DNA of 52,188 nt, the filler included, from Sphacelaria rigidula (Eukaryota), in NCBI GenBank assembly GCA_964200075.2. It is 4 parts of 4 records of this genome, joined end to end, with 100 filler letters (N's around TTAATTAATTAA, not from the genome) between each part and the next. Parts side by side here need not be neighbours in the genome. Positions count along the whole stretch, not along the records: positions 39,218 to 52,188 come from CAXNAA020003259.1; 3 more parts are not named here. The stretch is one strand, 5' to 3'. A program made the translations under genes and the position numbers. Positions within the stretch are counted from its first letter, which is position 1. Each line of letters opens with the position of its first letter. The notes below the pieces were generated by a model. The model did not search any database and was not told the origin of the DNA. It saw nothing but the letters and a program-made list of their open reading frames with translations. Below are positions 26,046 through 52,188 of the stretch, piece by piece.

Positions 26046-26145
26046 NNNNNNNNNNNNNNNNNNNNNNNNNNNNNNNNNNNNNNNNNNNNTTAATTAATTA
26101 ANNNNNNNNNNNNNNNNNNNNNNNNNNNNNNNNNNNNNNNNNNNN
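26046..26145. other. Artificial contig linker N44-TTAATTAATTAA-N44
   Basis: Same 100-nt linker. Confidence 0.97.
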
Positions 26146-39117: not shown

Positions 39118-39217
39118 NNNNNNNNNNNNNNNNNNNNNNNNNNNNNNNNNNNNNNNNNNNNTTAATTAATTAANNNNNNNNNNNNNNNNNNNNNNNNNNN
39201 NNNNNNNNNNNNNNNNN
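39118..39217. other. Artificial contig linker N44-TTAATTAATTAA-N44
   Basis: Same 100-nt linker. Confidence 0.97.
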
Positions 39218-39341
39218 CGCCCCTCGCTCAGACCGGGAGGCCCCTGCGCGCGGGGGGGGGGGGGGGGGGGGGGGGGGGGTACTCATTTTTTGCTTGCTCT
39301 AATCGCCCGGGAGGGGCGGGGCATTCTTCATGAGAGGTACC

Positions 39342-39829
39342 TCCCACGGTTGTGGAAATTTAGCGCCGGATTGCACCGACACCAGAATAATGCACAGCCG
39401 ACAACAAGCCGGCACACTAAGCCCCATTGATGCATAGCCGAAAATGATCCGCATCGTCCATGTCGAAGAGTCGCCCACCGGGCACACGGCATGGGGTTGT
39501 CGCCAGTCGATGAGTGAAGAACTTCGAAGGCGAGACGGACGCTCATGAGTATATTTTGCGTCCAGACGGCCGCGGCGTCCAGTTTGTTGCCGAGCAAGCA
39601 GTGCTCGAGCCCCGCTTCCAGCATCGCGATGAAAGACCACTCTTCCTTGAGATCTGGGTCCATTTGAGCTAGACAGAGTAACTCACGAACATTGCAGTAT
39701 ATATATTTGGCGTTGGAAGTGTTGTACGGTGCGGGATATTTCATCAGCCGGAAAAGGTGCAAGTGACGAAAGCCCTGGTCGAAAGACAGGGGCGTGTAGA
39801 CTGACGACGGAAAGTGCCTCAATAGATTT
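39342..39829 (-). CDS. Possible internal exon of an unidentified gene
   Basis: About 160 open codons with protein-like composition (RNLLRHFPSSVYTPLSFDQGF...MDPDLKEEWSFIAMLEAGLEHCLLG...) between a candidate CAG acceptor and AG|GTACC donor. No family recognised. Confidence 0.3.
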
Positions 39830-40656
39830 CTGTCTATCACAAAGTGTTTTATCTCTGTTTTCTGTTTGTTTTCCTCTGGAAAACAGGGGATGAAATTGAA
39901 AAGTAAGGAGAGGGACTGCCATCTCACAAGCCTGTCTCTTCATCTCACGACGTAGTGTGGAAATATTACATCTTCATCAAACGACTTTAATGGTAATACA
40001 GCTGGAAAATAAAATGCGGTATCTGCAGGGTTATTTTTTCAATTATTTTGCTACGAAATGACTTCAGGCTTCAATACTTCACACTGCGATGGTCGTGCCT
40101 CGTGTTCCTATTTTGTTCCGGGCCTGATCAGAAGAATGTTCAACTAAATATATTCTCTATACGTCGTATTATAAAAATGTGGTTGAGATTTGTTCACTTG
40201 TACAGCGTACAGCTGTACTACAGCATCAGCAGCATCAGCAACAGCAGCAGTGAGAGGTGATAGATAGGAAGTGTCAGCGGTGGAGGAGTCAACAATGCAG
40301 GTACTGAGGCGGAACCGAAAGAGGTTGAGGTGATTGAGGTGAGGACTTCGAAGCCTTTGCCGGGCGACGCTAAAAAGAAAAGAGAGAACAAAGTTTATTC
40401 TTGTAAGTAAAAGTAAACATCAAAACTTCGAATGCCCAACGTGTCGTCTCGTCCTCATGCTAGAAGGCGCGCCTCGTGAGGGGATACTGTCACAACGCCA
40501 CAACAAGGACGCGAGTAAGGCCTATTAAGCATGCATACATGCACTAAAAGAGCTCAAATTGGGGGCTTGGAAAGAACAAAAAGAACTTACTAAAAAACAG
40601 CTTAATGTCAAGAAAAGAACGCGCAAACGGAACTAAAGCCTAACGGCATGTGATAA

Positions 40657-41907
40657 GGCCGTGTCTTATCGAAACCAACAGGAGCGGGAAAAGGGATAGG
40701 TGTCCAAAAGCAGCATGTTGATTACTCGCCGCAACCATACACCCACCGGGCGATAAATGCACGTGCTGCTCTTGGCTTTCGGATCGTGTTCCTTATAGGC
40801 TGCGTCTACCTGAGACGGAAAAAAGGAGGGGGGAAATGGTACAAGCTCCACAAGCAGCATGTTGATTGGTCGCCCGGTGGGTCTATGGTTGCGTCGACTA
40901 GTCAACACGCTGCTTTTGGACGCATGTTCCTCTTATATTTTTTTTTTGCATTTTCTCGAGAAGACACGATATCGCGGCGACTAACCAGCATGCCGATTTT
41001 GGTCGCATGTTTCGTACTTACTATAAACGCTTTTTGCTTTTTGGTCTCGGTAAGACAAGGCTCGATGTGATAAGACCAGGCCTTGCCTGATCGACAGCAA
41101 AAAGTAACAGAGTAGAGTGGAACTAGCGTCCGAGAGCACCATCTTGATTATTCATCGGCGTAACCGTAGACTCGCCCACCGATCAATCAACGCGCTACTT
41201 TTTGACGCTTGCTTCTTTCCTCGCTTTTTTTTTTTTTGTGCTCGACACAGCGTCTAGGGTGTCATGTCGAGACACTAAAATAAGTGAGAAACGGAACAAG
41301 CGTCCGAAAGCAGCGCGTTGGTTGATCCCCGGGCGGGTCTATGGTTACGGCGACGAATAATCAACATGCTGTTTCTGGACGCTTGTGCCGTTTCTTCATT
41401 GCTCCAGTATTTTGTCTTCACAAGACACGGCCTAACGGCCTCGTCCCGTTTCTTCTCAAAAACAAAAATCGAACGAAAAAGCGCGGCAGAAGAGAAAATT
41501 CCGGTCTGACAGGTCAGGATGGGTCGTGATTCACGACATGTCCACGTCATCTTGAAATGACGACCTATCAGATCGGGATTTTGTTTTCCACGGCCCATTC
41601 TGGAATGTTTTTTGTTTCTATGACATCTTAGCCTAACGCCCTGTCTTGTCGAAACAAAAAAATAGCGAGAGGCGTAACGAGCTTCCAAAAACATCATGTG
41701 ATCCGTCGCCGGGCGGATCTGTGGTTCCGGCGACTCATTAACATGCTGCCTTTGGATGCTTATCTCGGTAAGACAGGGACCAATCACAGGGCCCTAAGCT
41801 TTTTCTTTCCGAGTTGATGAAAAAACAGCAGAAAGCAAAGAAAGCGCCCAAAAGCAGCATGTTGATCGGTCATCCCGCTGCGTGGTGTCGAGGCGATCAA
41901 TCAACCG
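40657..41907. repeat. Tandem array of ~6 palindromic units (core GTCCAAAAGCAGCATGTTGATT-loop-AATCAACATGCTGCTTTTGGAC)
   Basis: Cores at about 40702, 40845, 41126, 41297, 41680, 41843; asymmetric loop present in both orientations; shared flank motif GGCCGTGTCTT/AAGACACGGCC. Confidence 0.8.
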
Positions 41908-41982
41908 CTGATTATTATTTAAGGAGAGTTTGGCGTCGACACAAAGCGCACCTCGTGTCTGATGACGCTGAAACTTGGAGTA

Positions 41983-43020
41983 TGACTGACTGATTGATTG
42001 ATTAATTGATGGATTGATTGCCGCACTTAAACTGACCCCCCAGGGATCTAGACGTGGTTACATGATGGGCGTACCCGAGACAAAGCAAACTGAAACACTC
42101 GCTCAAGAAAAAAGAAGAAAACACAGAAGGGTAGAACACAACATAGTAGACTGATAAATAACAACATAAGACGAAAAAAGAAATGGCCGGCTCCTACCAC
42201 ATGGCTTCGGTGGTGAAGGTCTTGCACAGAAGCACACTCATACCCGGTCGTAGGACACAAAGTGCCGTGGGGAAATATTGCGACTCATCTACTACGACCG
42301 CACGCACTATTTTGGATATGAAGCCTCTCATCCATGGACCTTACGGAAGCGAGGAACCAAACCGCTGTGGCATACATCAGCAGGAAAAAACACATGTATA
42401 GAAAACAAGATTGGGGAAGAGAGGGCAGGGAAGATGGAGACTATAGACGTGGTGAAGCCCGAAGTATTCAGGGCAGCAGAGGAGGTACAGACACACACAC
42501 CAGGGGGCACTGCAGAGCTACCGACCAAGGCCGCAACCAATAATCGAGAGAGGCAGACCGGATTCTTCGATTGGCGGCTCTCGACGCAGCAGCCTCTCGT
42601 TTGTGACGATAGTCCCATTCTTGGATTCTTGTTGTGTTGGCGTCGCCACGTGTCCTCAAACCCTCCCGCTCCTTTTTTGGCTCCAAGATGCCATTCGGCC
42701 ATGTTCTTCGCCGCAGTGATCCAATCGTATGCATCCTACATTTCTATACCGTAAACAAACCATTCCCGTCGCGCAATTTTGTGCGGAGCAGCCCCTAGTG
42801 CACGTAGGTTCTCCTGAAGGTTTTCGTCCCATCGTTTGGGGGTGCGGCCAGCGTCCATGCGGCCTGGTGCGGTTAACCGTCCGTTCATGATGGGTTTGGG
42901 AAGGAGTGTTTCCTTCTGCCGGACAAGGACTGCAGCGAACCAGAGTTGACGCTTGTGGATAGTCGTCCCGATACGTTCGCAGTTCGTCATCTCGAGCACC
43001 ACTCTGCACGAAAGAGTCTT
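41983..43020 (-). mobile_element. 3' end of degenerate RTE-type LINE (ORF C-terminus, 3' UTR, (CAAT)n tail)
   Basis: LEMTNCERIGTTIHKRQLWFAAVLVRQKETLLPKPIMNGRL...GRTPKRWDENLQENLRALG resembles RTE-clade post-RT region (RRLRW-GH...RLPK...GRP-xx-W); in-frame stop; microsatellite tail. Confidence 0.8.
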
Positions 43021-43432
43021 GCAGCCACTTCGATCTTTCGTGCGGAATTCAGCTATTTGCAGCTATGGCTTGTGATGGGCAGTGCGCAGACTGTCGAATT
43101 CATTAGAACCATAGTAATATTTGAGTATTTTCGTGAGATTTGAAAGTCTAGCGTTGAGTGAACTTGAGTTTTAGTTTTCGCTCTAACTTGACCAACTTTT
43201 CATTTTGCGTGTACCTTTTTTCCGCCTGTAACACTGTCGTGTGCTTACAGCTGCATGGCGATAGCCTACTCAAGGATTTCAAAGGCTTCAGTGGCAAGCT
43301 ACTGCAGAAAACGTATCGGGCCTCGTATAAGGCTCCGAGGGGGCATTTCGGAACATAAACATTTCATTAACTAATTGACTGCTTCCCACTCTCAAACATA
43401 CCCTAGACTCTCAATTTCACAAAAAAATTGTT

Positions 43433-43525
43433 TCATGCGGTGCATCCATACAACAAAGCCTCCACCACCTTCGCTTTAAGCAGCCAGACTTCCAAGTTTA
43501 GCTGGGCGTGGGGTCGACCGTAGAG
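43433..43525 (-). mobile_element. RTE LINE RT C-terminal fragment
   Basis: QLYGRPHAQLNLEVWLLKAKVVEALLYGCTA; LLYGC is a typical RTE motif. Confidence 0.65.
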
Positions 43526-45239
43526 TTGAGAACTATATTCCACTTTCAAAAAGTGAAGTTGGTTTCTGCTGCGGGTGAAAAATCGACTAACCTGTATTTT
43601 GCGACTCCGTTTTTGCGACCTGATTTTTGCGACTTGATTACTGCGACTCGATTCGTGCGACATTTATTTGCCAGATTTTCCACTCTAAAACCCCTATCGA
43701 TTTCGTTTTTTTCGGATAACTTTGTCAAATAGAAACTGAAGGCATCTTGCTCCAAGGTGCACCTCGACACACAGCAGTTGCTGCTGCCTACGTAGTATCA
43801 TCCTCCAAATCGAAGTCTCGAGTAAAACCCCCCAGCGTTTGGTGCCCATGTACAGGGATGGTCCCCATCTAGTATCATGCTACACAACGTACCCGAGAAA
43901 GGGGCAACATCCTCGTAGAGACAGCAGCAATGCTAGCGGATCCCACGTCCTGACAGTCTGGTAGCCGGCAAGGTTGTTATAATATCTCCTTCTAGCGATA
44001 TCGCCTTACAGTGCACTGGAGCAGAGTTTGCCGGTGAATATTTCGGCGATTGCCTCACCTGCAGTTCGCACAGATGTTGCGGAGTTTTTTCACGGAATCA
44101 CTGAGTAACGTTACACACATTTACATGTGGAAAACGACCAGACCCTGCATTGTATATGGAAATGTACCCAACCGTGGACGAAAGATTTCCACAGTCAGCA
44201 CGAACATGATGTTGAAAGTGTACTGCGCATAGTCAAGTGTGTTGTGTGTGTTGTCGCCGTATCTATTCTGGACAGCTTTACAAATGTGATGTAGCGATAT
44301 AGTGCGTAGCGAGGGATTTTGTCGTTATATCCTGCGTACACGTTGGCCGCGATGCAAGCGGCTGCATTCATGGTGTGGCAAACCGCATAGGAATAGGCTC
44401 AGGATGTCACGTCCTGCGGTGTGCTTTGTCACCCTACACCCTGCCGCTGTGCAGTGAGCAGGTAGTCACGCCACAGGCGTCACGCTGCGGTTGATACGCA
44501 GTGTCGGCTCCACACACATACGAAGTAGGGTAACTCTGCGCCGAATTAAATAAAACGCAGTGAGTTAAATTAAACACGCGGAGCGCGTTATTTTCGAACA
44601 GCACGCGCGCTAGCGCTTGCGCGATTTTTCGTGTTGCCGAAATCGTGCCAGCGCGCTTGCACTACAGTGTTGTACTCCCCTGTGGCAGCCCATCACGGTA
44701 TTGCTACTCATGTTTCATCACGCTTTACTCGAAAATACGCAGAAGAGATGCCAGCGAATCCATCGTTGTTGCACTTGGAGGTGTGGTGAACCAGTTTTCT
44801 TCGATTTACTACTGCCGCGTGCTCTGTGCTGTACCAAATAGTATACCGTACCCTTTCAAAAACAGATATGCATGATATAAACGCCACCGACATGCTCTGG
44901 TTATAATGAAGTGTGCACGAGGCGCGGGAAGCGTAGTTTTTGTCAAGGAATGCGAGGACGTAACCATATTACAGTATAGGCAGTTTTTATTACTAGCATG
45001 CAACACGTGATTCGAACGAGACACAAGACAAAGCATTTACATGATAATTCCAGGGCGTTTTGGTACTAAAACGACTCCACCAATCCCTCCGCTGCCTACC
45101 GTAAGCAGAGACGGACACCACGTGTGAAAACAGAATAAAATGCGGGCAGACCCTCATTTTAGAGTAGAAGGGCCCAGCCGAGACCACTCCGGTTTCATCG
45201 CCGGAATTCGATACCGCAACGTCACAAACACTGAAATAT

Positions 45240-46720
45240 ATTGAAGTTGGAAGCGCCCTGGACACAGGGCAATCTATTTTCGGAAACACGCTCACGCTGC
45301 GCTGATGCGGCGGTTGATTTCGATAGACATTTCTACATCCGCGCCGGAAACACCGTCAAGGTAGACGAACTTCGCCGCCAGCTTACACCGTTGGCCGGCC
45401 GCCTTGGTGTGCAGGGCGGCCTCCGTGGAACTGGATACTAACCCCAGGCGCATGGACTCTGTCATACTCTCGGAGACCGTCAGCCCGTACTCCTGGCAAG
45501 TCACCGCTAGCACGGGCACGGCCATCATTCGAGCAAGGCCGTCTGAGGTCCTCGAGACGATGCTGGCATCGTCCGCATAAAACATTGTCCACACTGCACG
45601 TCTCTTTCAGGGGTTCACCACCGTCACCTTTTGGCGCATTATCTAGAAAAACTAAGTCTGGGATGATCACAGGGTCCGCCGCGAACCGCTCTACGATCGC
45701 GTCGACTATGCCTGCGCCGAAGGTGTCGAAGAACAGCGCAGACGAAACGCAACCATATCTGAGTCCTGCTTATGGTTCGCCACCATCAAGCTGTACCCGA
45801 GCTCGCATGCCGTCGTGAAACATGCGGATGATGATGATAATTTGCGGCGGGACTCCAAACTGAGGGATCACTTCCTACAGGAGCGTGCGGTCTACGGAAT
45901 CGTCGACTCCATCTAGATCGATAATGCACATGTTTAGTGGAACATTACCCGCCCGTCCTAAGCCCTGTAGTCGGCGTACTACGAACATCATGTCTGTGGT
46001 CAATCGTTGGCACCTGAATCCGCATCGTTCTTCTGGGATAACATCTGTTTCCTCACAAAAATTACCGAGCCTGTTGGCTACGATTTTGAGGAGAACTTGG
46101 CACCATGTGCCACGAGTGAACTGCCCGTCTAGTTACCACACTCGGTCCTATCCCTTTTCTTTGTGTAGCACTGTGACGGTGACGTCTCTCCATTCCTGCG
46201 GCACCTCGCCAGATGTCTAAACCACAGAGGCGATTATGTGAAAGCTGCACAGAATCTCCGACGCCTCCTCGTTCAGTCCAAGCTTCAGGATTCCAGCAGG
46301 TAGACCATCCGAACCCGTCGCTTTGCCGTTCGACATAGTTCTCAGAGTCTCCTTAGTTTCACGTGGGCTTGGCGGGTCTCCCAGTGACAACGCTATCGGT
46401 CGTTGCGCAATCTACTCGATGACGGCGGTTCGGTCGATAGTTGCCGATATGGAATTCAGTAATGTGGAGAAGTACCACTCCCGTCTCTTACTGTTCAAAC
46501 CTTTGGCTCGCAGTATATTCCGGTCCTCGTCTCGGGTGCACTGCTCACTCTCGATTTGTCGTCCCGACAGTCTCCACCCTCGGTTGAGATGTCTGTCCCA
46601 TCCTGTCATGTCCCCCACTCGAGTATATTCCTCCAACCCTCTAGCATATACATCCATGTATTTGTCCACCCTAACTTGGATCACGTCTTTGAACTCTTTG
46701 CGAGTATATCTTGGTGATTG
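45240..46720 (-). mobile_element. Degenerate RTE-type LINE reverse transcriptase region
   Basis: WTMFYADDASIVS (YADD), YGLTVSESMTE, KFVYLDG, IEINRRISAA; upstream frames disrupted by stops and frameshifts. Confidence 0.85.
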
Positions 46721-46809
46721 CCGTAAGTGGGTGTTGGAGCCACAGGTTCGGTGGCGCAAGGCGCTCAGGGCGCTGTATGGGTTGAAACGGTGATTATCAG
46801 CTGTGGTTA

Positions 46810-47300
46810 TCGCAGTTTCAGTTTTTTCGCGTAGTCCCTGGGACCATACGTGAATGGGTTTTTATTCCTATCCCCTCTCTGAACCCCCTGTATATCTTCA
46901 GGTGACATTCCTTGCCCAATTTTTGTCTCACCACTTGCTTGCCCCTTGTTTCTCGATCTTTGTTTACTTCGGTCTCGTGCCCCCCCATATTCACCCGTGG
47001 ATATTTTTTCGCTTTGGTTTCCTTTTGTACCCTCATGATTCCTCGACTAGCTGTTCACCTTAGTCCAGCCTATCCTTCCGGTACTTTCTTGCATATAGCC
47101 TTGTCAGCTGTAGCTGGTGATATTTTTTCTTGGCCTATTCCTCACGCTACATTGCCATTTCAATTTTCTCAATTCTCTATCTCCACCTGTATTTGTTTCA
47201 AGCCAACTTGGGTGGGAGGGGGAGTAATTCACAGCCACCAGTTGGCAGGGCCCCTTGTTCAAGGTCGAAATTACCAGCACCCACTCTAGGATAAATGGTA
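46810..47300 (-). mobile_element. Fragment of a second non-LTR retroelement ORF C-terminus
   Basis: HLKIYRGFREGIGIKT...GPRDYAKKLKLR (frameshifted) resembles the post-RT region of LINE-like repeats, recognised from memory only. Confidence 0.5.
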
Positions 47301-48338
47301 TTTGTATGTCAGTTATATTCATGCACACGGTATAACTGAGCATAACGTGGGATTAAATTGCATGGGTTCAGCGTGGATCAAATATCATTGATTCATCGGT
47401 GTAGTCCAATAACTATGACACTAGGTTTGGCAGCATTCTCGATGTCAGATATTTTCAGTAGGATGTGTTCGTGCGCCTTATTAAGCGTTTTCACCCCAGT
47501 CGTCTCACCCTTCCGCCGGCGCGCATGCCGGACTACTTTCGCAGTGTCATCTTGAAAGTCCCCACAATAATGCCTAGATGTTTCGCGGGACCTCTATCTA
47601 TGCTGCCCCCCGCTACGCCGTTGTGGTGTCGTACGCCGTGTGTGGTCGATCTGGTCTACACGCACTGTACGCGAGATGACGAGATAATTAAACACGTGAA
47701 AAACTGTCCCATAAAAGATCGCCACTTGACAGGATTGTGTAGCCGAGGGTGAGGTTATGTGCTCGTTCTACAATGTGTCAAGCGTGTTGGGACCTCCATG
47801 TCTATTTCACCGGAGTCTTTGTTTTTCTCCTTGTCATTTCCTTGCGTGGCTTGGGCGTAAAAAACGTTGTCAACACCCCACTAGATATCCTTTTGGCGCA
47901 GGGTTCTCGTCAGGCGCAGTGTACTCGTCGCACGCTCAACCCTGCTCCATGTGTTTGCTTATTCAAGACACCTAGACGAGCTTTCAGAAGAAATGATCAT
48001 CTGCCGAGCAATCCCCCAAAATATTTTCACCACATTGTTTTCACGATCAAATTTCTGGTTCCCCTGGGATCGTCCCCCGCCCGCCCGCTCCCCTGTAAGT
48101 TCCTTGCAGGTCACGTACACAGGGTACGCGAACTGGAGCAAGAGGGTGTCACAGCTGGTGGTGGCCTGCGGTCGAGGGATCTCTTCTGGTTCTGCCTGTC
48201 GCGTGTCAACTTGAATCGTTCCTTCCTCCCGTCACCCAGGTTTTCGTGGACACGCTTCTATCACAGTACGCTAGCGTGGGTTCCTCGATATATATCTTGC
48301 ATAATTTCGTCCGGTGTGTAGCGGCAAAGCGCGAAGTC

Positions 48339-50771
48339 ATGCACCCGGAAAAATCGGGCGCGAACATGCGCATTCGCCCGGCAAAAACGTGTCTCGAAGA
48401 CGGCTGCTCCAACCATCCGGTATTCGGTGTGGTGGGTTCCAAGAAGAGGGACTTCTGCCCTCAACATGCGAGAGCAGGGATGGTGGAGAAGATCCAGTAT
48501 AATTTGTGCAAAGAAAAGTCCTGTTCGATAACGGCGGTTTACGGTGTAGCGGGCAGTAGAAGAAGGGAGTTCTGTGCCCGACACGCAAGGCCGGAGATGG
48601 TCAGCCTCTGCAAAAAAGCTTGTCGTAAGAGGGGTTGCCACACATCACCTTCGCAGGGTGTCATCGGTAGCAAGATTCCGCAGTTCTGCTCCAAGCATGC
48701 GAAAAAGGGAATGGTGAACGTGGTGAGCAAACGGTGCGGTGAAAGCGGCTGCAACAAGCTTCCTTCATACGGTGTCGAAGGTAGCAGGAAGAACGCAGAG
48801 TTCTGCCTCGCACATGCGAAGGAGGGGATGGTCAACGTCGTGAGTTTGAGGTGCGTTGAGGAGGGCTGCTCCAAAACCCCGACGTACGGTGTCACTCAGG
48901 ACGGTCGACGGAGATTCTGCGCCCAGCACGCGGAGGCGGGAATGCTTAGTATTGGGGGCGAGAGGTGCTGCGAGGAGGGTTGCGAGACAAGACCGTCGTA
49001 TGGTGCACCGGGCAGCACGAGACCGAAGTTTTGCGTCCATCACGCCAAAACGGGAATGGTACGTGTTTTGAATGGCTCGTGTGCACGTGAAGGCTGCTCG
49101 AGAAGACGGTCGTACGGGGTCGCCGGTTCAGGAAAGGCCGAGTTCTGCGCCGCCCACGCCAAGGCGGGGATGATCAGTCTCGTGAACCGAAAATGTGCCG
49201 AAGAGGGCTGTTTCAAGGTTCCTTCCTATGGCGTCGCTGGGAGCATGAAGCCAGAGTTCTGTGTCAAGCATGCCAAGACAGGGATGACTCGTGCGACGGG
49301 TGAGTCGGATTTGTGTTCCAGCGAAGACTGCTCGACGAGGCCGTCGTACGGCGTCCCTGGTGGGAAGCCTGAATTCTGCGCCGCACACGCCAAGGCAGGG
49401 ATGATCAATGTCGTAAGCTACACATGTGCAGAAGAGGGCTGCTACACATCACCGACCTACGGCGTTGCTGGTAGCAAAAAAGCAGAGTTCTGCGCCAAAC
49501 ACGCAAGAGCAAAGATGGTCGACGTCCAGAACAAGAAGTGCGACAACGATGGCTGCTCGACGAGGGCGTCGTATGGAGTACCGGGCAGCAAAGTGGAGTT
49601 CTGTGCCAAGCATGCAAGGGCAGGGATGGCAAACCTCAAAGACACAAAGACGTGCGAAGAGAAGGACTGCTCCATCTTTCCGTCGTTCGGCGTCGCTGGC
49701 AGCAAGATGCCGCAGTTCTGCGCTCGGCATGCTTCGCCAGGGATGATCAACGTCGTCAACAAAAAATGCTCGGGGGAGGGTTGCTCGAAGATTCCGTCTT
49801 TCGGCGTACCTGGTAGCAAAAACAAGGAGTTCTGCTCCATCCACGCCAGACCGGGGATGGTTGACATCGCGAACAGAAAGTGCAGCAGCAAAGGCTGCAC
49901 GACGAGGCCGCATTTTGGTGTTCCGGGTAGCCGGAGAGCGGAGTTCTGCGCCACGCATGCCCCGGCGGGGATGGTCAGTATGTCTATTTGGCGCAGCAAG
50001 ACCAACAACAACAAGAGCCGCTCCGCCCAAGATGACGACTCTGGTGATGCAAAGCATTGTAGACAGCGTGCAGCAGCGACTGTGCAACAAGAGGCGAGCA
50101 ATGCGCCCGATCCAGCAGAGCTTTGTCGGGATGGAGGTGGTCCTGACCGGAGTGACCCGGCGAGGGATGGTGCAACCGGCGGGGTCGTTGCTGGTGGACG
50201 GGGACGAAAACGCAGTCGTCCTGCTCAGGATGCTGACAATGATGCTGGTTCAGCGTCACAACGCCCCCGTGCTGGGTCCCGCCGCAGTGTGCGTTGTGCA
50301 AGTGGCGGCACGCAGGGTGATGGTGTACCCCCGCGATCGTCACTGCTGTTGGTGTCACGGCAGCCCGCCCCAACAATAGTCGATCAAGTGTCCAACGGCG
50401 GGACATCGGAGGGTCAGATTAAGTTCGAGGCGACGGTCGAACCTGCCGTTGTTTCTGAGCGTCTCCGCGGTAGCACGGAGCAACTGCTGCGCAGCAGCGA
50501 GACACATCGTAACGGAACGCAGCGGGGCGAGTTGTCATTTGGCCCTTCTTCAAGTAGTAGCAGTAGAAGTGGTGGAAGCGGAAGTTCTTCGAGAAGCAGC
50601 AGTAGCAGCAAAAGTGGCAGAACAAAATCGGTCAGTAGGAATGACACCGGGGCAACGCCGGCGAAACACCCAGCCACAGAAATACAGGTTGTGGATGACG
50701 AGATTGTGTGTGGATCGGCAGATGCGCACGTGAAGTTGGAGTGGCCCGCACCGGCTCCTCATCATTCGTAG
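48339..50771 (+). CDS. EsV-1-7 repeat protein: 14 tandem C-x4-C-x4,5-(Y/F)G-x7-9-FC-x2-H-x4-M units plus disordered C-terminus (810 aa from the first ATG)
   Basis: Uninterrupted ORF 48246-50771; first ATG at 48339; repeats span 48390-49973 and match the EsV-1-7 cysteine-rich motif. An upstream exon splicing to the TAG at 48319-48321 cannot be excluded. Confidence 0.93.
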   Translation: MHPEKSGANMRIRPAKTCLEDGCSNHPVFGVVGSKKRDFCPQHARAGMVEKIQYNLCKEKSCSITAVYGVAGSRRREFCARHARPEMVSLCKKACRKRGCHTSPSQGVIGSKIPQFCSKHAKKGMVNVVSKRCGESGCNKLPSYGVEGSRKNAEFCLAHAKEGMVNVVSLRCVEEGCSKTPTYGVTQDGRRRFCAQHAEAGMLSIGGERCCEEGCETRPSYGAPGSTRPKFCVHHAKTGMVRVLNGSCAREGCSRRRSYGVAGSGKAEFCAAHAKAGMISLVNRKCAEEGCFKVPSYGVAGSMKPEFCVKHAKTGMTRATGESDLCSSEDCSTRPSYGVPGGKPEFCAAHAKAGMINVVSYTCAEEGCYTSPTYGVAGSKKAEFCAKHARAKMVDVQNKKCDNDGCSTRASYGVPGSKVEFCAKHARAGMANLKDTKTCEEKDCSIFPSFGVAGSKMPQFCARHASPGMINVVNKKCSGEGCSKIPSFGVPGSKNKEFCSIHARPGMVDIANRKCSSKGCTTRPHFGVPGSRRAEFCATHAPAGMVSMSIWRSKTNNNKSRSAQDDDSGDAKHCRQRAAATVQQEASNAPDPAELCRDGGGPDRSDPARDGATGGVVAGGRGRKRSRPAQDADNDAGSASQRPRAGSRRSVRCASGGTQGDGVPPRSSLLLVSRQPAPTIVDQVSNGGTSEGQIKFEATVEPAVVSERLRGSTEQLLRSSETHRNGTQRGELSFGPSSSSSSRSGGSGSSSRSSSSSKSGRTKSVSRNDTGATPAKHPATEIQVVDDEIVCGSADAHVKLEWPAPAPHHS

Positions 50772-51267
50772 GGGTAGCCGCAGTAATTACGTCACACTTT
50801 CCACGATAGCCCCCCCCCAAAAGAATGCATGTTTTTGGGAGGCAAAACCTTCACGTAAATCTAAATGGGAAAAGCTAACAACAGCGAGCAGCTGGGAATT
50901 CCCACGCTTGGGTTCGTTCTACCCAATGTCGCCAATATGAGGCGCTTCATGCAGACTGAAACCAAACGTCAGGCGCTCTATGGTCATTTTTTTCGTGACA
51001 CTGTTGGGCTGGTTTTGGTGGGGGGGGGCTAAAGTGGAACGTGTCACATTCGTACCCCCTGCTAAGCTGTCTACCCTGTAAAAATATATACGAAGTACAC
51101 GATGCGAACACAGACTCGCGATGGATCGAGTGGACGCTGTCTGTGCAGGTAGTTTGTTTGTACTGTGTGGGCTCTGTTGTTCTAGTGAGTGAGCATCTTT
51201 CATTCATTTTTTCGCGTGGGATCGGTCATAGATGCGCACATTGTAGTTGCGTCTTCTGTGTGTGTAT

Positions 51268-51480
51268 GTGTTGTCGTGCCATCTATTCTGGGCGCTGGTC
51301 TACACCTTTCGGTATATGTGGGCGCACCAGCCGGGGTTACACAGGAGGAAGGTCAAGACAGGAATTTTTTCTTTTTTGTTTGTTTTTGGTACCCCACCTT
51401 CCTTCTGCGGTGCTCGCCTCCATTTTTTTATTGCGAGAGGGGTTCAGCAGTCCCTTCCCCTCCTCGACCGTCACGTCGAA
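51268..51480 (-). mobile_element. 5'-truncated copy of the tRNA-derived SINE
   Basis: CCATCTATTCTGG...GTGGGCGCACCAGCCGGGGT-ACACAGGAGGAAGGTCAA...GCGAGAGGGGTTCAGCAGTCCCTT is nearly identical to 33770-33955. Confidence 0.8.
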
Positions 51481-52188
51481 TTATACGCGAAGGATTTTAT
51501 CCATATATAGTTAAGGATGTTATCCATGCATATTTATATATTCGTGCATATATGCAAAGTGGTGAGTAGGCGCAAGTTGCTGTGTCTTGGATTATGCTGG
51601 ATACATACCGTGGCTTTGCTGTCTTTCCTTTCCTCTTTTCTTCTGAATACTCTGTTGGCAGATGTGAGGGGTTTGTTTTTACCTCACCCCGATGAAATCG
51701 GGGAAAGCTACGATATTTATCTTCTGTTTTCTTGGCGTCTCTCTTGATGATTTTTATTTGGTGCTCCTTTATCAGGTTTGTTTCTCTCTTCTCCGGAGTA
51801 TCGGAAGGAACGACGAGAAGTCTGTCTCTTGTAGGGAGTAGCAGGGACGGTATTTTGAAAAACGAGCCCACGTCTGTGACCACGGGTTCGAGAGGTTGAG
51901 CGAATGTGCGGAAACAATGATGGCAATAAAAATAGCAAATGTCTTTTTATTTTATAAGTTGACTGCAAGTTCAGGGATTTGATCCGTCGCAATTCTTGAG
52001 AATCGTACATCGGCGTTTGTTGCTTTCAGATCATGCATCCAAGGACCAACTATTATTGATAATGTTCACCTTTGACCGCCAGGGTTACGAATCAGTCACG
52101 CAGCACTTTTTCAAAACAGCGAATCATCTATGTTGAGGATGGTACTTTTTGTTGAGGATGAAACACAGTCGGAAAAACCTCGCGCAAC

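Follow-up and report, generated by a model that had tools for sequence, protein, structure and literature searches.

A 14-unit EsV-1-7 array gene in Sphacelaria rigidula encodes a candidate nucleic-acid-targeting relative of giant-virus array-nucleases

We analyzed a 52,188-nucleotide (nt) stretch of the Sphacelaria rigidula genome assembly GCA_964200075.2 (hereafter the window; four parts of four records joined end to end, with positions 39,218–52,188 from CAXNAA020003259.1), in which one long gene encodes a tandem array of EsV-1-7 repeats. The plus-strand open reading frame (ORF) runs uninterrupted from stop to stop for 841 codons (48246–50771). An in-frame stop lies directly upstream of 48246, and the first in-frame ATG, at 48339, begins a coding sequence of 810 amino acids (aa) that extends to the stop at 50771 (48339–50771, +); the ESM Atlas copy of the window protein begins at ORF residue 32, a methionine, which is this same ATG. 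Across the 52 kb, the only other ORFs to reach 200 aa are two antisense frames nested within this one and the two overlapping frames at 1792–3005. As no dense set of ORFs surrounds the array gene, its location is host DNA rather than a provirus, and we read 48339–50771 as an intact gene in a host genome of brown-alga type.

Fourteen EsV-1-7 Cys3-His units stand head to tail on the plus strand, beginning at the first Cys of unit 1 and ending at the conserved Met in unit 14 (48390–49973). A first-pass annotation had proposed such an array, and its extent was recovered to the nucleotide by a regular expression and by the Pfam family PF19114 (EsV-1-7); a hidden Markov model (HMM) built from the units and run over all six window frames also matched these 14 and nothing more. 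The PF19114 match of the window protein comprises 14 stretches and 602.1 bits against a cut-off of 25 (E 7e-186), and the Pfam scan of the protein returned no other family. By regular expression, the units lie on the plus strand at 48390–48482 (unit 1), 48507–48599 (unit 2), 48621–48713 (unit 3), 48735–48830 (unit 4, with one extra loop residue), 48852–48944 (unit 5), 48966–49058 (unit 6), 49080–49172 (unit 7), 49194–49286 (unit 8), 49314–49403 (unit 9), 49425–49517 (unit 10), 49539–49628 (unit 11), 49653–49745 (unit 12), 49767–49859 (unit 13) and 49881–49973 (unit 14).

All 14 units, of ~38 aa each, share the scaffold Cys-x4-Cys … Cys-x2-His with conserved G, F and M. In agreement with the fixed scaffold described earlier, the C, C, G, F, C, H, A and M columns do not vary across the 14 units, and the 14 residue triplets that follow the second Cys (post-Cys2) were identical to those first listed. 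The scaffold columns are 94–100% conserved in 910 units of homologues, and all 56 zinc-ligand positions of the array are intact. Mean identity between units is 48% at the protein level and 58% at the DNA level, and invariant residues are written with synonymous codons (Cys1, TGC in eight units and TGT in six; His, CAT in seven and CAC in seven; Gly, four codons). The low identity between units together with synonymous codons at invariant residues indicates old copies under purifying selection rather than recent duplication. Tandem Repeats Finder detected no DNA-level tandem array in the window; a DNA repeat search recovered 12 of the 14 copies, spaced 111–117 nt apart with 60–75% identity. The array is basic (net charge +39, isoelectric point 9.27), and family-wide conserved K/R residues occupy columns 1, 2, 10, 20, 21 and 29 in the 910 units.

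Behind the array lies a C-terminal tail of 262 aa (49983–50768, +) with the composition of a low-complexity region (S 44, G 29, R 27, A 27). Searched against a small local database, it gave only a weak match to the tail of P0013, a homologue from Sphacelaria (40% over 84 aa, E 3e-4). A basic patch in the tail, GRGRKRSRP (50196–50222, +), may act as a nuclear-import signal.

The array gene is probably transcribed. In each of three small sequencing runs (X4, X5 and X6, from two studies), one contig of 2841–2845 nt covers a transcript-like stretch on the plus strand (48097–50914; individual ends at 50910 or 50914) at a depth of 42–62, the depth of the small runs upstream, at 46180–47899, being 0–4.2 (bin means). 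A DNA-like run, X1, gave a single contig over 46763–50821 at an even depth of 68.6. The X4–X6 contigs look like a transcript free of introns in the coding part, with the RNA nature of these runs being an automatic guess and no run recorded as RNA. Beyond 48097 the small-run contigs carry 26–27 unaligned letters without explanation; a clean splice acceptor at 48097 was considered and dropped, as 48095–48096 read GT and not AG. The contig end near 50914 abuts a high-copy repeat and need not be the end of a transcript. Some run contigs join distant array units (48875–49374 and 48557–49595) with 8–39 other letters in between; rather than splicing, these most simply reflect paralogues of the EsV-1-7 family or repeats that were cross-joined in assembly.

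The best named relatives of the window protein are from Sphacelaria, Ectocarpus, Ascophyllum, Pylaiella and Scytosiphon. No close orthologue was present in the searched collection, where the best match showed 50% identity over 42% of the query. Family-wide comparisons used the query and its 120 listed homologues, a biased set of 121 proteins confined to lengths of 462–1472 aa, and among these the window protein has the most units, the others having 11 or fewer. Ectocarpus IMMEDIATE UPRIGHT (IMM) was reportedly placed in the EsV-1-7 family by Macaisne and colleagues in 2017. According to the accessible text of Denoeud et al. (10.1101/2024.02.19.579948), 2018 EsV-1-7 proteins have been catalogued and the family is among the largest gene-family expansions of brown algae; the same text describes IMM as a member with a mutant phenotype that controls early development and has a specific N-terminal domain before five repeats. 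In the portions available of a 2026 preprint, no Ectocarpus EsV-1-7 gene is given another Pfam domain annotation (10.64898/2026.04.27.720984), and a Genome Biology article reports, in its accessible part, that the Ectocarpus Tc1/mariner transposase TcMar-2_Ec32 acquired an EsV-1-7 domain at its N-terminus (PMC12477816). The window protein resembles the brown-alga family in its tandem PF19114 repeats, its Cys-x4-Cys … Cys-x2-His pattern, the lack of any other Pfam domain and its brown-alga-type host gene; it differs in having 14 units, compared to five in IMM, and a tail weakly shared with Sphacelaria proteins only. Judged by the description of IMM, the window protein is not its counterpart, having just 15 residues before the array (counted from M32) and 14 repeats.

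Five eukaryote gene models (P0044, P0074, P0091, P0112 and P0119) combine EsV-1-7 arrays with unrelated Pfam domains, namely MFS transporter, ETF, rhomboid, methyltransferase and ankyrin parts; they may be merged gene models and were left out of alignment A1. A few array proteins gave sub-threshold to marginal matches to PF24906 (Zf_WRKY19, land plants), summed over the first 13 of its 24 positions and scoring 35.3 bits in P0012, 31.6 in P0141 and 26.5 in P0008 against a cut-off of 27, and the window protein has no such match. These scores hint at motif relatives in land plants, where the literature calls the EsV-1-7 family absent.

Many of the aligned homologues contain a conserved block after the array. 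This block is a C-terminal nuclease-type domain, found in 68 of the 121 proteins by HMM and in 61 by regular expression. Scanning IMG/VR with one such fusion protein, P0022, returned 37 loci, many of them from metagenome-assembled genomes of giant viruses. At 22 of the 37 loci, a single ORF encodes both 2–13 units (by the unit HMM) and the nuclease domain; at one further locus (L026) the array and the nuclease domain are in adjacent ORFs, and Pfam adds L018–L025 and L028 as array-bearing loci. The viral arrays are homologous to the window array (33–50% identity), with unit and linker alike, although columns 15 and 29, which are G and A in the window protein, favour N and K in the viral units. 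At their C-terminus the giant-virus array-nucleases carry a zinc ribbon followed by a PD-(D/E)xK domain of ~150 aa, whereas the window protein has neither: the nuclease HMM found no C-terminal P-D … E-x-D-E-x-x-H … N-P-D domain in it and matched none of the six window frames.

The fused domain is predicted to fold as a Vsr-like PD-(D/E)xK nuclease. In the model of P0022 (predicted local distance difference test (pLDDT) score 90.5), residues 397–554 aligned by VIA-align with Vsr (1cw0_A; Z 8.7, 132 aligned, root-mean-square deviation (rmsd) 4.1), the catalytic domain of I-Bth0305I (3r3p_B; Z 8.5, 95 aligned, rmsd 3.2) and the DUF559-like NGO0050 (3hrl_A; Z 7.3), and with many restriction enzymes and Hjc at Z ~5–6.4. 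The top Foldseek rows for the P0022 model were also PD-(D/E)xK nucleases, at E 0.02–0.5 and none at E ≤ 0.001. Vsr, I-Bth0305I and the DUF559 protein share the predicted fold and the E-x-D-E-x-x-H motif with the fused domain of the relatives, not with the window protein, and the fused domain has no sequence-level match to any PDB chain. The E, D, E and H of this motif, together with R, N, P and R, are invariant in all 25 locus domains of alignment A2, a set chosen by motif regular expression in which the catalytic residues are invariant partly by construction. I-Bth0305I, an ‘EDxHD’ homing endonuclease, is described in the accessible text as having a separate DNA-binding region and a C-terminal Vsr-like catalytic domain (PMC3239194).

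Pfam matches of the 25 domains were sub-threshold (REase_MTES_1575 and Hjc, 3/25 each), which may explain why domain tables miss the fusion. With a nuclease profile, 7285 cluster representatives were retrieved at E ≤ 1e-3. PF19114 was present in 67 of the first 100 listed among the best 150 of these representatives, a biased sample that lies closest to a query built from EsV-1-7 fusion relatives, and in 120/120 listed relatives of the nuclease part of P0022 alone. BFVD matches of the fusion model include EsV-1-7 and EsV-1-115 of the virus EsV-1, and the namesake EsV-1-7 (Q8QNQ2, 378 aa) aligned to it over 333 columns. UniProt automatic names among the BFVD matches include ‘Endonuclease’ (Faunusvirus, Brazilian cedratvirus and Pithovirus LCPAC) and ‘DUF559 domain-containing protein’; databases, that is, already recognize the nuclease part.

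Genes flanking the fusion loci include the major capsid protein of nucleocytoplasmic large DNA viruses (NCLDV), RPB2 and topoisomerase II. One array-nuclease gene starts 79 nt after RPB2 (L002:5001–6668) and another 45 nt after topoisomerase II (L027:5001–6512); at L014, HNH_3 and Bro-N/T5orf172 genes lie near the array-nuclease gene. Free-standing phage homing endonucleases also sit beside conserved core genes.

The slot before the nuclease can be filled by a different zinc module. A giant-virus ORF of 634 aa (L035:4266–6167, +) encodes about eight C2H2 fingers with TGEKP linkers followed by a P0022-type nuclease (blastp E 3e-13), and from its sequence looks like a natural zinc-finger nuclease. 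The ORF continues with an acidic low-complexity stretch and more C2H2 fingers at the C-terminus, and adjoins an NCLDV major capsid gene. C2H2-type BFVD matches of the fusion model came from Marseillevirus, Pithovirus, Harvfovirus, Hyperionvirus and Heterosigma akashiwo virus. The window array and C2H2 arrays such as those of TFIIIA and Zif268 are alike in their tandem small zinc modules, conserved linker, many variable positions and, among relatives, the same slot before a giant-virus nuclease. They differ in ligand pattern and spacing (Cys-x4-Cys-x16–17-Cys-x2-His in the window units, Cys-x2–4-Cys-x12-His-x3–5-His in the beta-beta-alpha C2H2 fingers), and the window units are not C2H2 fingers: they gave no Pfam C2H2 match at E ≤ 1, no helix beyond one turn and no fold match.

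An AlphaFold2 (AF2) model of residues 40–590, built from 116 sequences, had a mean pLDDT of 76 and a predicted template modeling (pTM) score of 0.52, with most units at pLDDT ≥ 90. Secondary-structure assignment by DSSP placed in each unit two short strands (Y-G-V and M-V-N) and a one-turn helix spanning Cys-x-x-His. The model, computed with no metal, brings the knuckle and the Cys-x2-His turn together in compact units at pLDDT ≥ 90, an arrangement compatible with putative zinc binding by the four ligands of each unit. Weak Foldseek rows for the array model were the zinc domain of coronavirus nsp13, LIM domains (E 5–7) and TFIIH. Sequence searches of PDB chains with the window protein, the family profile and the nuclease profile yielded no meaningful match, and neither did an ESM Atlas feature search from which PF19114 clusters were left out yield a usable one.

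Given that the array stands before a DNA-type nuclease in thousands of proteins, is replaced there by C2H2 fingers and has been fused to a transposase, the simplest reading is that it targets nucleic acid. As the window protein has kept the array and is without the enzyme, we read it as a domesticated binder. Reasoning from architecture, we lean with modest confidence towards its being a non-cutting, domesticated nucleic-acid-targeting regulator of the EsV-1-7 family. Each ~38-aa unit would be a small zinc-held module, in which the Cys-x4-Cys forms a knuckle and the Cys-x2-His, within its one-turn helix, packs on a two-stranded sheet (YGV and MVN), the units being joined through the short conserved linker. 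The 14-unit basic array would serve for nucleic-acid targeting, most likely of DNA, and the probably disordered Ser/Gly/Arg/Ala-rich tail could supply the effector or regulatory function. In that case the protein would act as a transcription or chromatin regulator, a relative of the giant-virus array-nucleases without a nuclease; DNA as the ligand, a nuclear location and a regulatory role are each suggested by analogy. Such a regulator agrees with the developmental role proposed for the EsV-1-7 family in the accessible literature (10.64898/2026.04.27.720984 and 10.1101/2024.02.19.579948).

Several observations weigh against this proposal. The nuclease domain was found in 0/16 named brown-alga homologues, and the argument for targeting consequently passes from viral relatives to host proteins. 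The array model resembles no fold of the nucleic-acid-binding kind: Foldseek against the PDB gave nothing at E ≤ 0.001, and the 13 VIA-align rows at Z ≥ 2 were exclusively RING and B-box domains (Z 2.0–3.0), although the absence of a match above Z 3.0 shows neither a new nor a different fold. RING and B-box domains are protein-binding modules. The pTM values of the window array model and of P0022 (0.44) leave the long-range shape of the array unpredicted, and the P0022 nuclease part also aligned with RAP-domain proteins (9g6k_Li, Z 7.1; 9gek_A, Z 6.8), which would suit RNA. The selection of the A2 domains and of the best 150 representatives, and the automatic classification of runs X4–X6, count on the same side.

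The first-pass annotation had gone further, proposing that each unit reads a few bases through its three post-Cys2 residues, in a programmable code of the kind used by transcription activator-like effector (TALE), pentatricopeptide repeat (PPR) or C2H2 arrays. Columns 9 and 11 are indeed among the most variable of the family (3.69 and 3.52 bits in the 910 units of 120 homologues), S, T, R, K, Q, H and N are frequent among the post-Cys2 residues, and the number of units before a constant nuclease varies from 2 to 13. The hypervariability attributed to these residues, however, did not set them apart, as variable columns are spread over the unit both in the 14 units and in the homologues. Within the window array, the triplet has entropies of 2.09, 1.99 and 2.69 bits, and similar or higher values are reached by the column after Cys1 (3.13), a linker column (2.98) and a Cys3–His column (2.61). 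In the per-column check suggested earlier, the top columns of the 910 units were 9, 27, 4, 5, 11, 16 and 30 (3.4–3.7 bits), so that columns 4, 5, 16, 27 and 30 equal the candidate positions in variability, and column 10 is K/T-rich and less variable. Among 973 distinct units there are 500 different triplets, the commonest, TTR, occurring 26 times, which leaves no small alphabet, and the strongest mutual-information pairs involve columns 4, 15, 19, 22, 23 and 24 rather than 9–11. Per-column divergence between orthologous units tracks that between units of one protein (Spearman 0.85; nine close pairs, not independent), with columns 2, 4, 6, 9, 16 and 27 evolving fast and columns 10–13, 22, 26, 30 and 35–37 somewhat better kept between orthologues than their between-unit variety predicts. 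The pattern at columns 10, 11 and 13, which differ more between units (0.74–0.88) than between orthologous units (0.33–0.35), is what unit-specific functional residues would show; such residues may exist, in nothing like a TALE-type code. TALE and PPR arrays are metal-free repeats of 34–35 aa in two helices, with one or two code positions and a small alphabet. The window array is like them solely in the proposed logic of a fixed scaffold with variable positions, its units being non-helical beyond one turn and none of their columns drawing on a small alphabet. The data do not support a simple code in which each unit reads through its three post-Cys2 residues; such a code appears decidedly unlikely, and any unit-wise recognition would use more spread-out positions. 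What stands of the nucleic-acid reader first proposed is general targeting, to which the nuclease fusions, the C2H2 slot and the basic array point; the post-Cys2 code falls away, its residues being neither distinctively variable nor drawn from a small set of triplets and the covariation lying elsewhere.

The array could instead be a protein–protein scaffold of tandem zinc modules, comparable to LIM, RING or B-box domains and making no contact with nucleic acid. The structural matches of the array model name only such domains (RING and B-box by VIA-align, LIM by Foldseek), variability is scattered over numerous positions, as a binding surface would show, and the lack of further Pfam domains on Ectocarpus EsV-1-7 genes, in the portions available of that preprint (10.64898/2026.04.27.720984), fits as well. 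These matches are all in the noise range, however, and a scaffold poorly explains the fusion to a nuclease in 68/121 proteins, the C2H2 fingers in the same slot, the transposase fusion and the strong net positive charge of the array; we consider it rather unlikely. LIM, RING and B-box domains are small zinc-held modules, as the window units would be, with two zinc ions and eight ligands, compared to four ligands in each window unit. RNA is a further candidate ligand, with knuckle-like modules each holding a few single-stranded nucleotides in the manner of the repeats that precede RAP domains. A Cys-x4-Cys knuckle also characterizes RNA-binding zinc knuckles, and RAP-domain proteins, whose repeat arrays and Vsr-like fold work together on organellar RNA, appear among the structures matched by the fused domain. 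Its closest fold matches are nevertheless DNA enzymes (Vsr and I-Bth0305I), the acidic and His residues of the motif are retained in every A2 domain, the C2H2 arrays of sister proteins have TGEKP linkers, the classical DNA-reading form, and the other known fusion partner is a DNA transposase, all of which make an RNA-binding array distinctly improbable. Decay of a viral array-nuclease gene that lost its nuclease, leaving a relic with no function, would account for the missing nuclease domain, the low-complexity tail and the distance of the nearest homologue. This is scarcely credible, however, for an uninterrupted frame of 841 codons whose zinc-ligand positions are all intact despite only 58% DNA identity between units, whose invariant residues use synonymous codons, which has transcript-like contigs in three runs and which belongs to a large host family with an IMM mutant phenotype (10.1101/2024.02.19.579948, accessible text).

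Taken beyond the window protein, the reading as a nucleic-acid-targeting regulator leads to a tentative and somewhat doubtful generalization, namely that EsV-1-7 arrays are a third natural zinc-based modular DNA-targeting system, which arose in aiming the Vsr-like nucleases of giant viruses, interchangeable with C2H2 fingers, and was captured without the nuclease by brown algae, where it expanded to yield hundreds of regulators, IMM and the window protein included. If this is true and each unit contacts a few base pairs, pairs of viral nuclease array and target could yield a recognition code. The nuclease link and the C2H2 swap turn the question of EsV-1-7 function into a concrete test of DNA targeting, for which the viral nucleases offer a system where cutting reports binding. 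The EsV-1-7 family is known and the window gene is new, as is, with respect to the literature searched, the family-level link to a Vsr-like nuclease: the search, with co-mentions checked in part, found no paper joining ‘EsV-1-7’ with a nuclease fusion, one co-mention concerning the transposase, and nothing on Vsr-type zinc-finger nucleases of giant viruses.

Elsewhere in the window, the overlapping ORF pair at 1792–3005 lies in DNA of higher G+C and consists of frames of 325 and 336 aa on opposite strands, neither with a Pfam family at E ≤ 0.1. Runs of 44 N bases occur in pairs at 12974–13017 and 13030–13073, 26046–26089 and 26102–26145, and 39118–39161 and 39174–39217, with a gap of 12 within pairs and a pair spacing of 13072; this regularity looks like a masking or construction artefact rather than assembly gaps. 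Just 3′ of the array gene, in the region 50480–52188, the summed contig depth of the DNA-like run rises from ~70 to 1.5e5–5.7e5, while that of the small runs reaches thousands, and this region is a very high-copy repeat. The segment 40688–41753 is MITE-like (miniature inverted-repeat transposable element), with an inverted repeat whose 87-nt arms (40689–40775 and 40848–40934) are 80% complementary, four copies of a 71-nt unit and raised depth.

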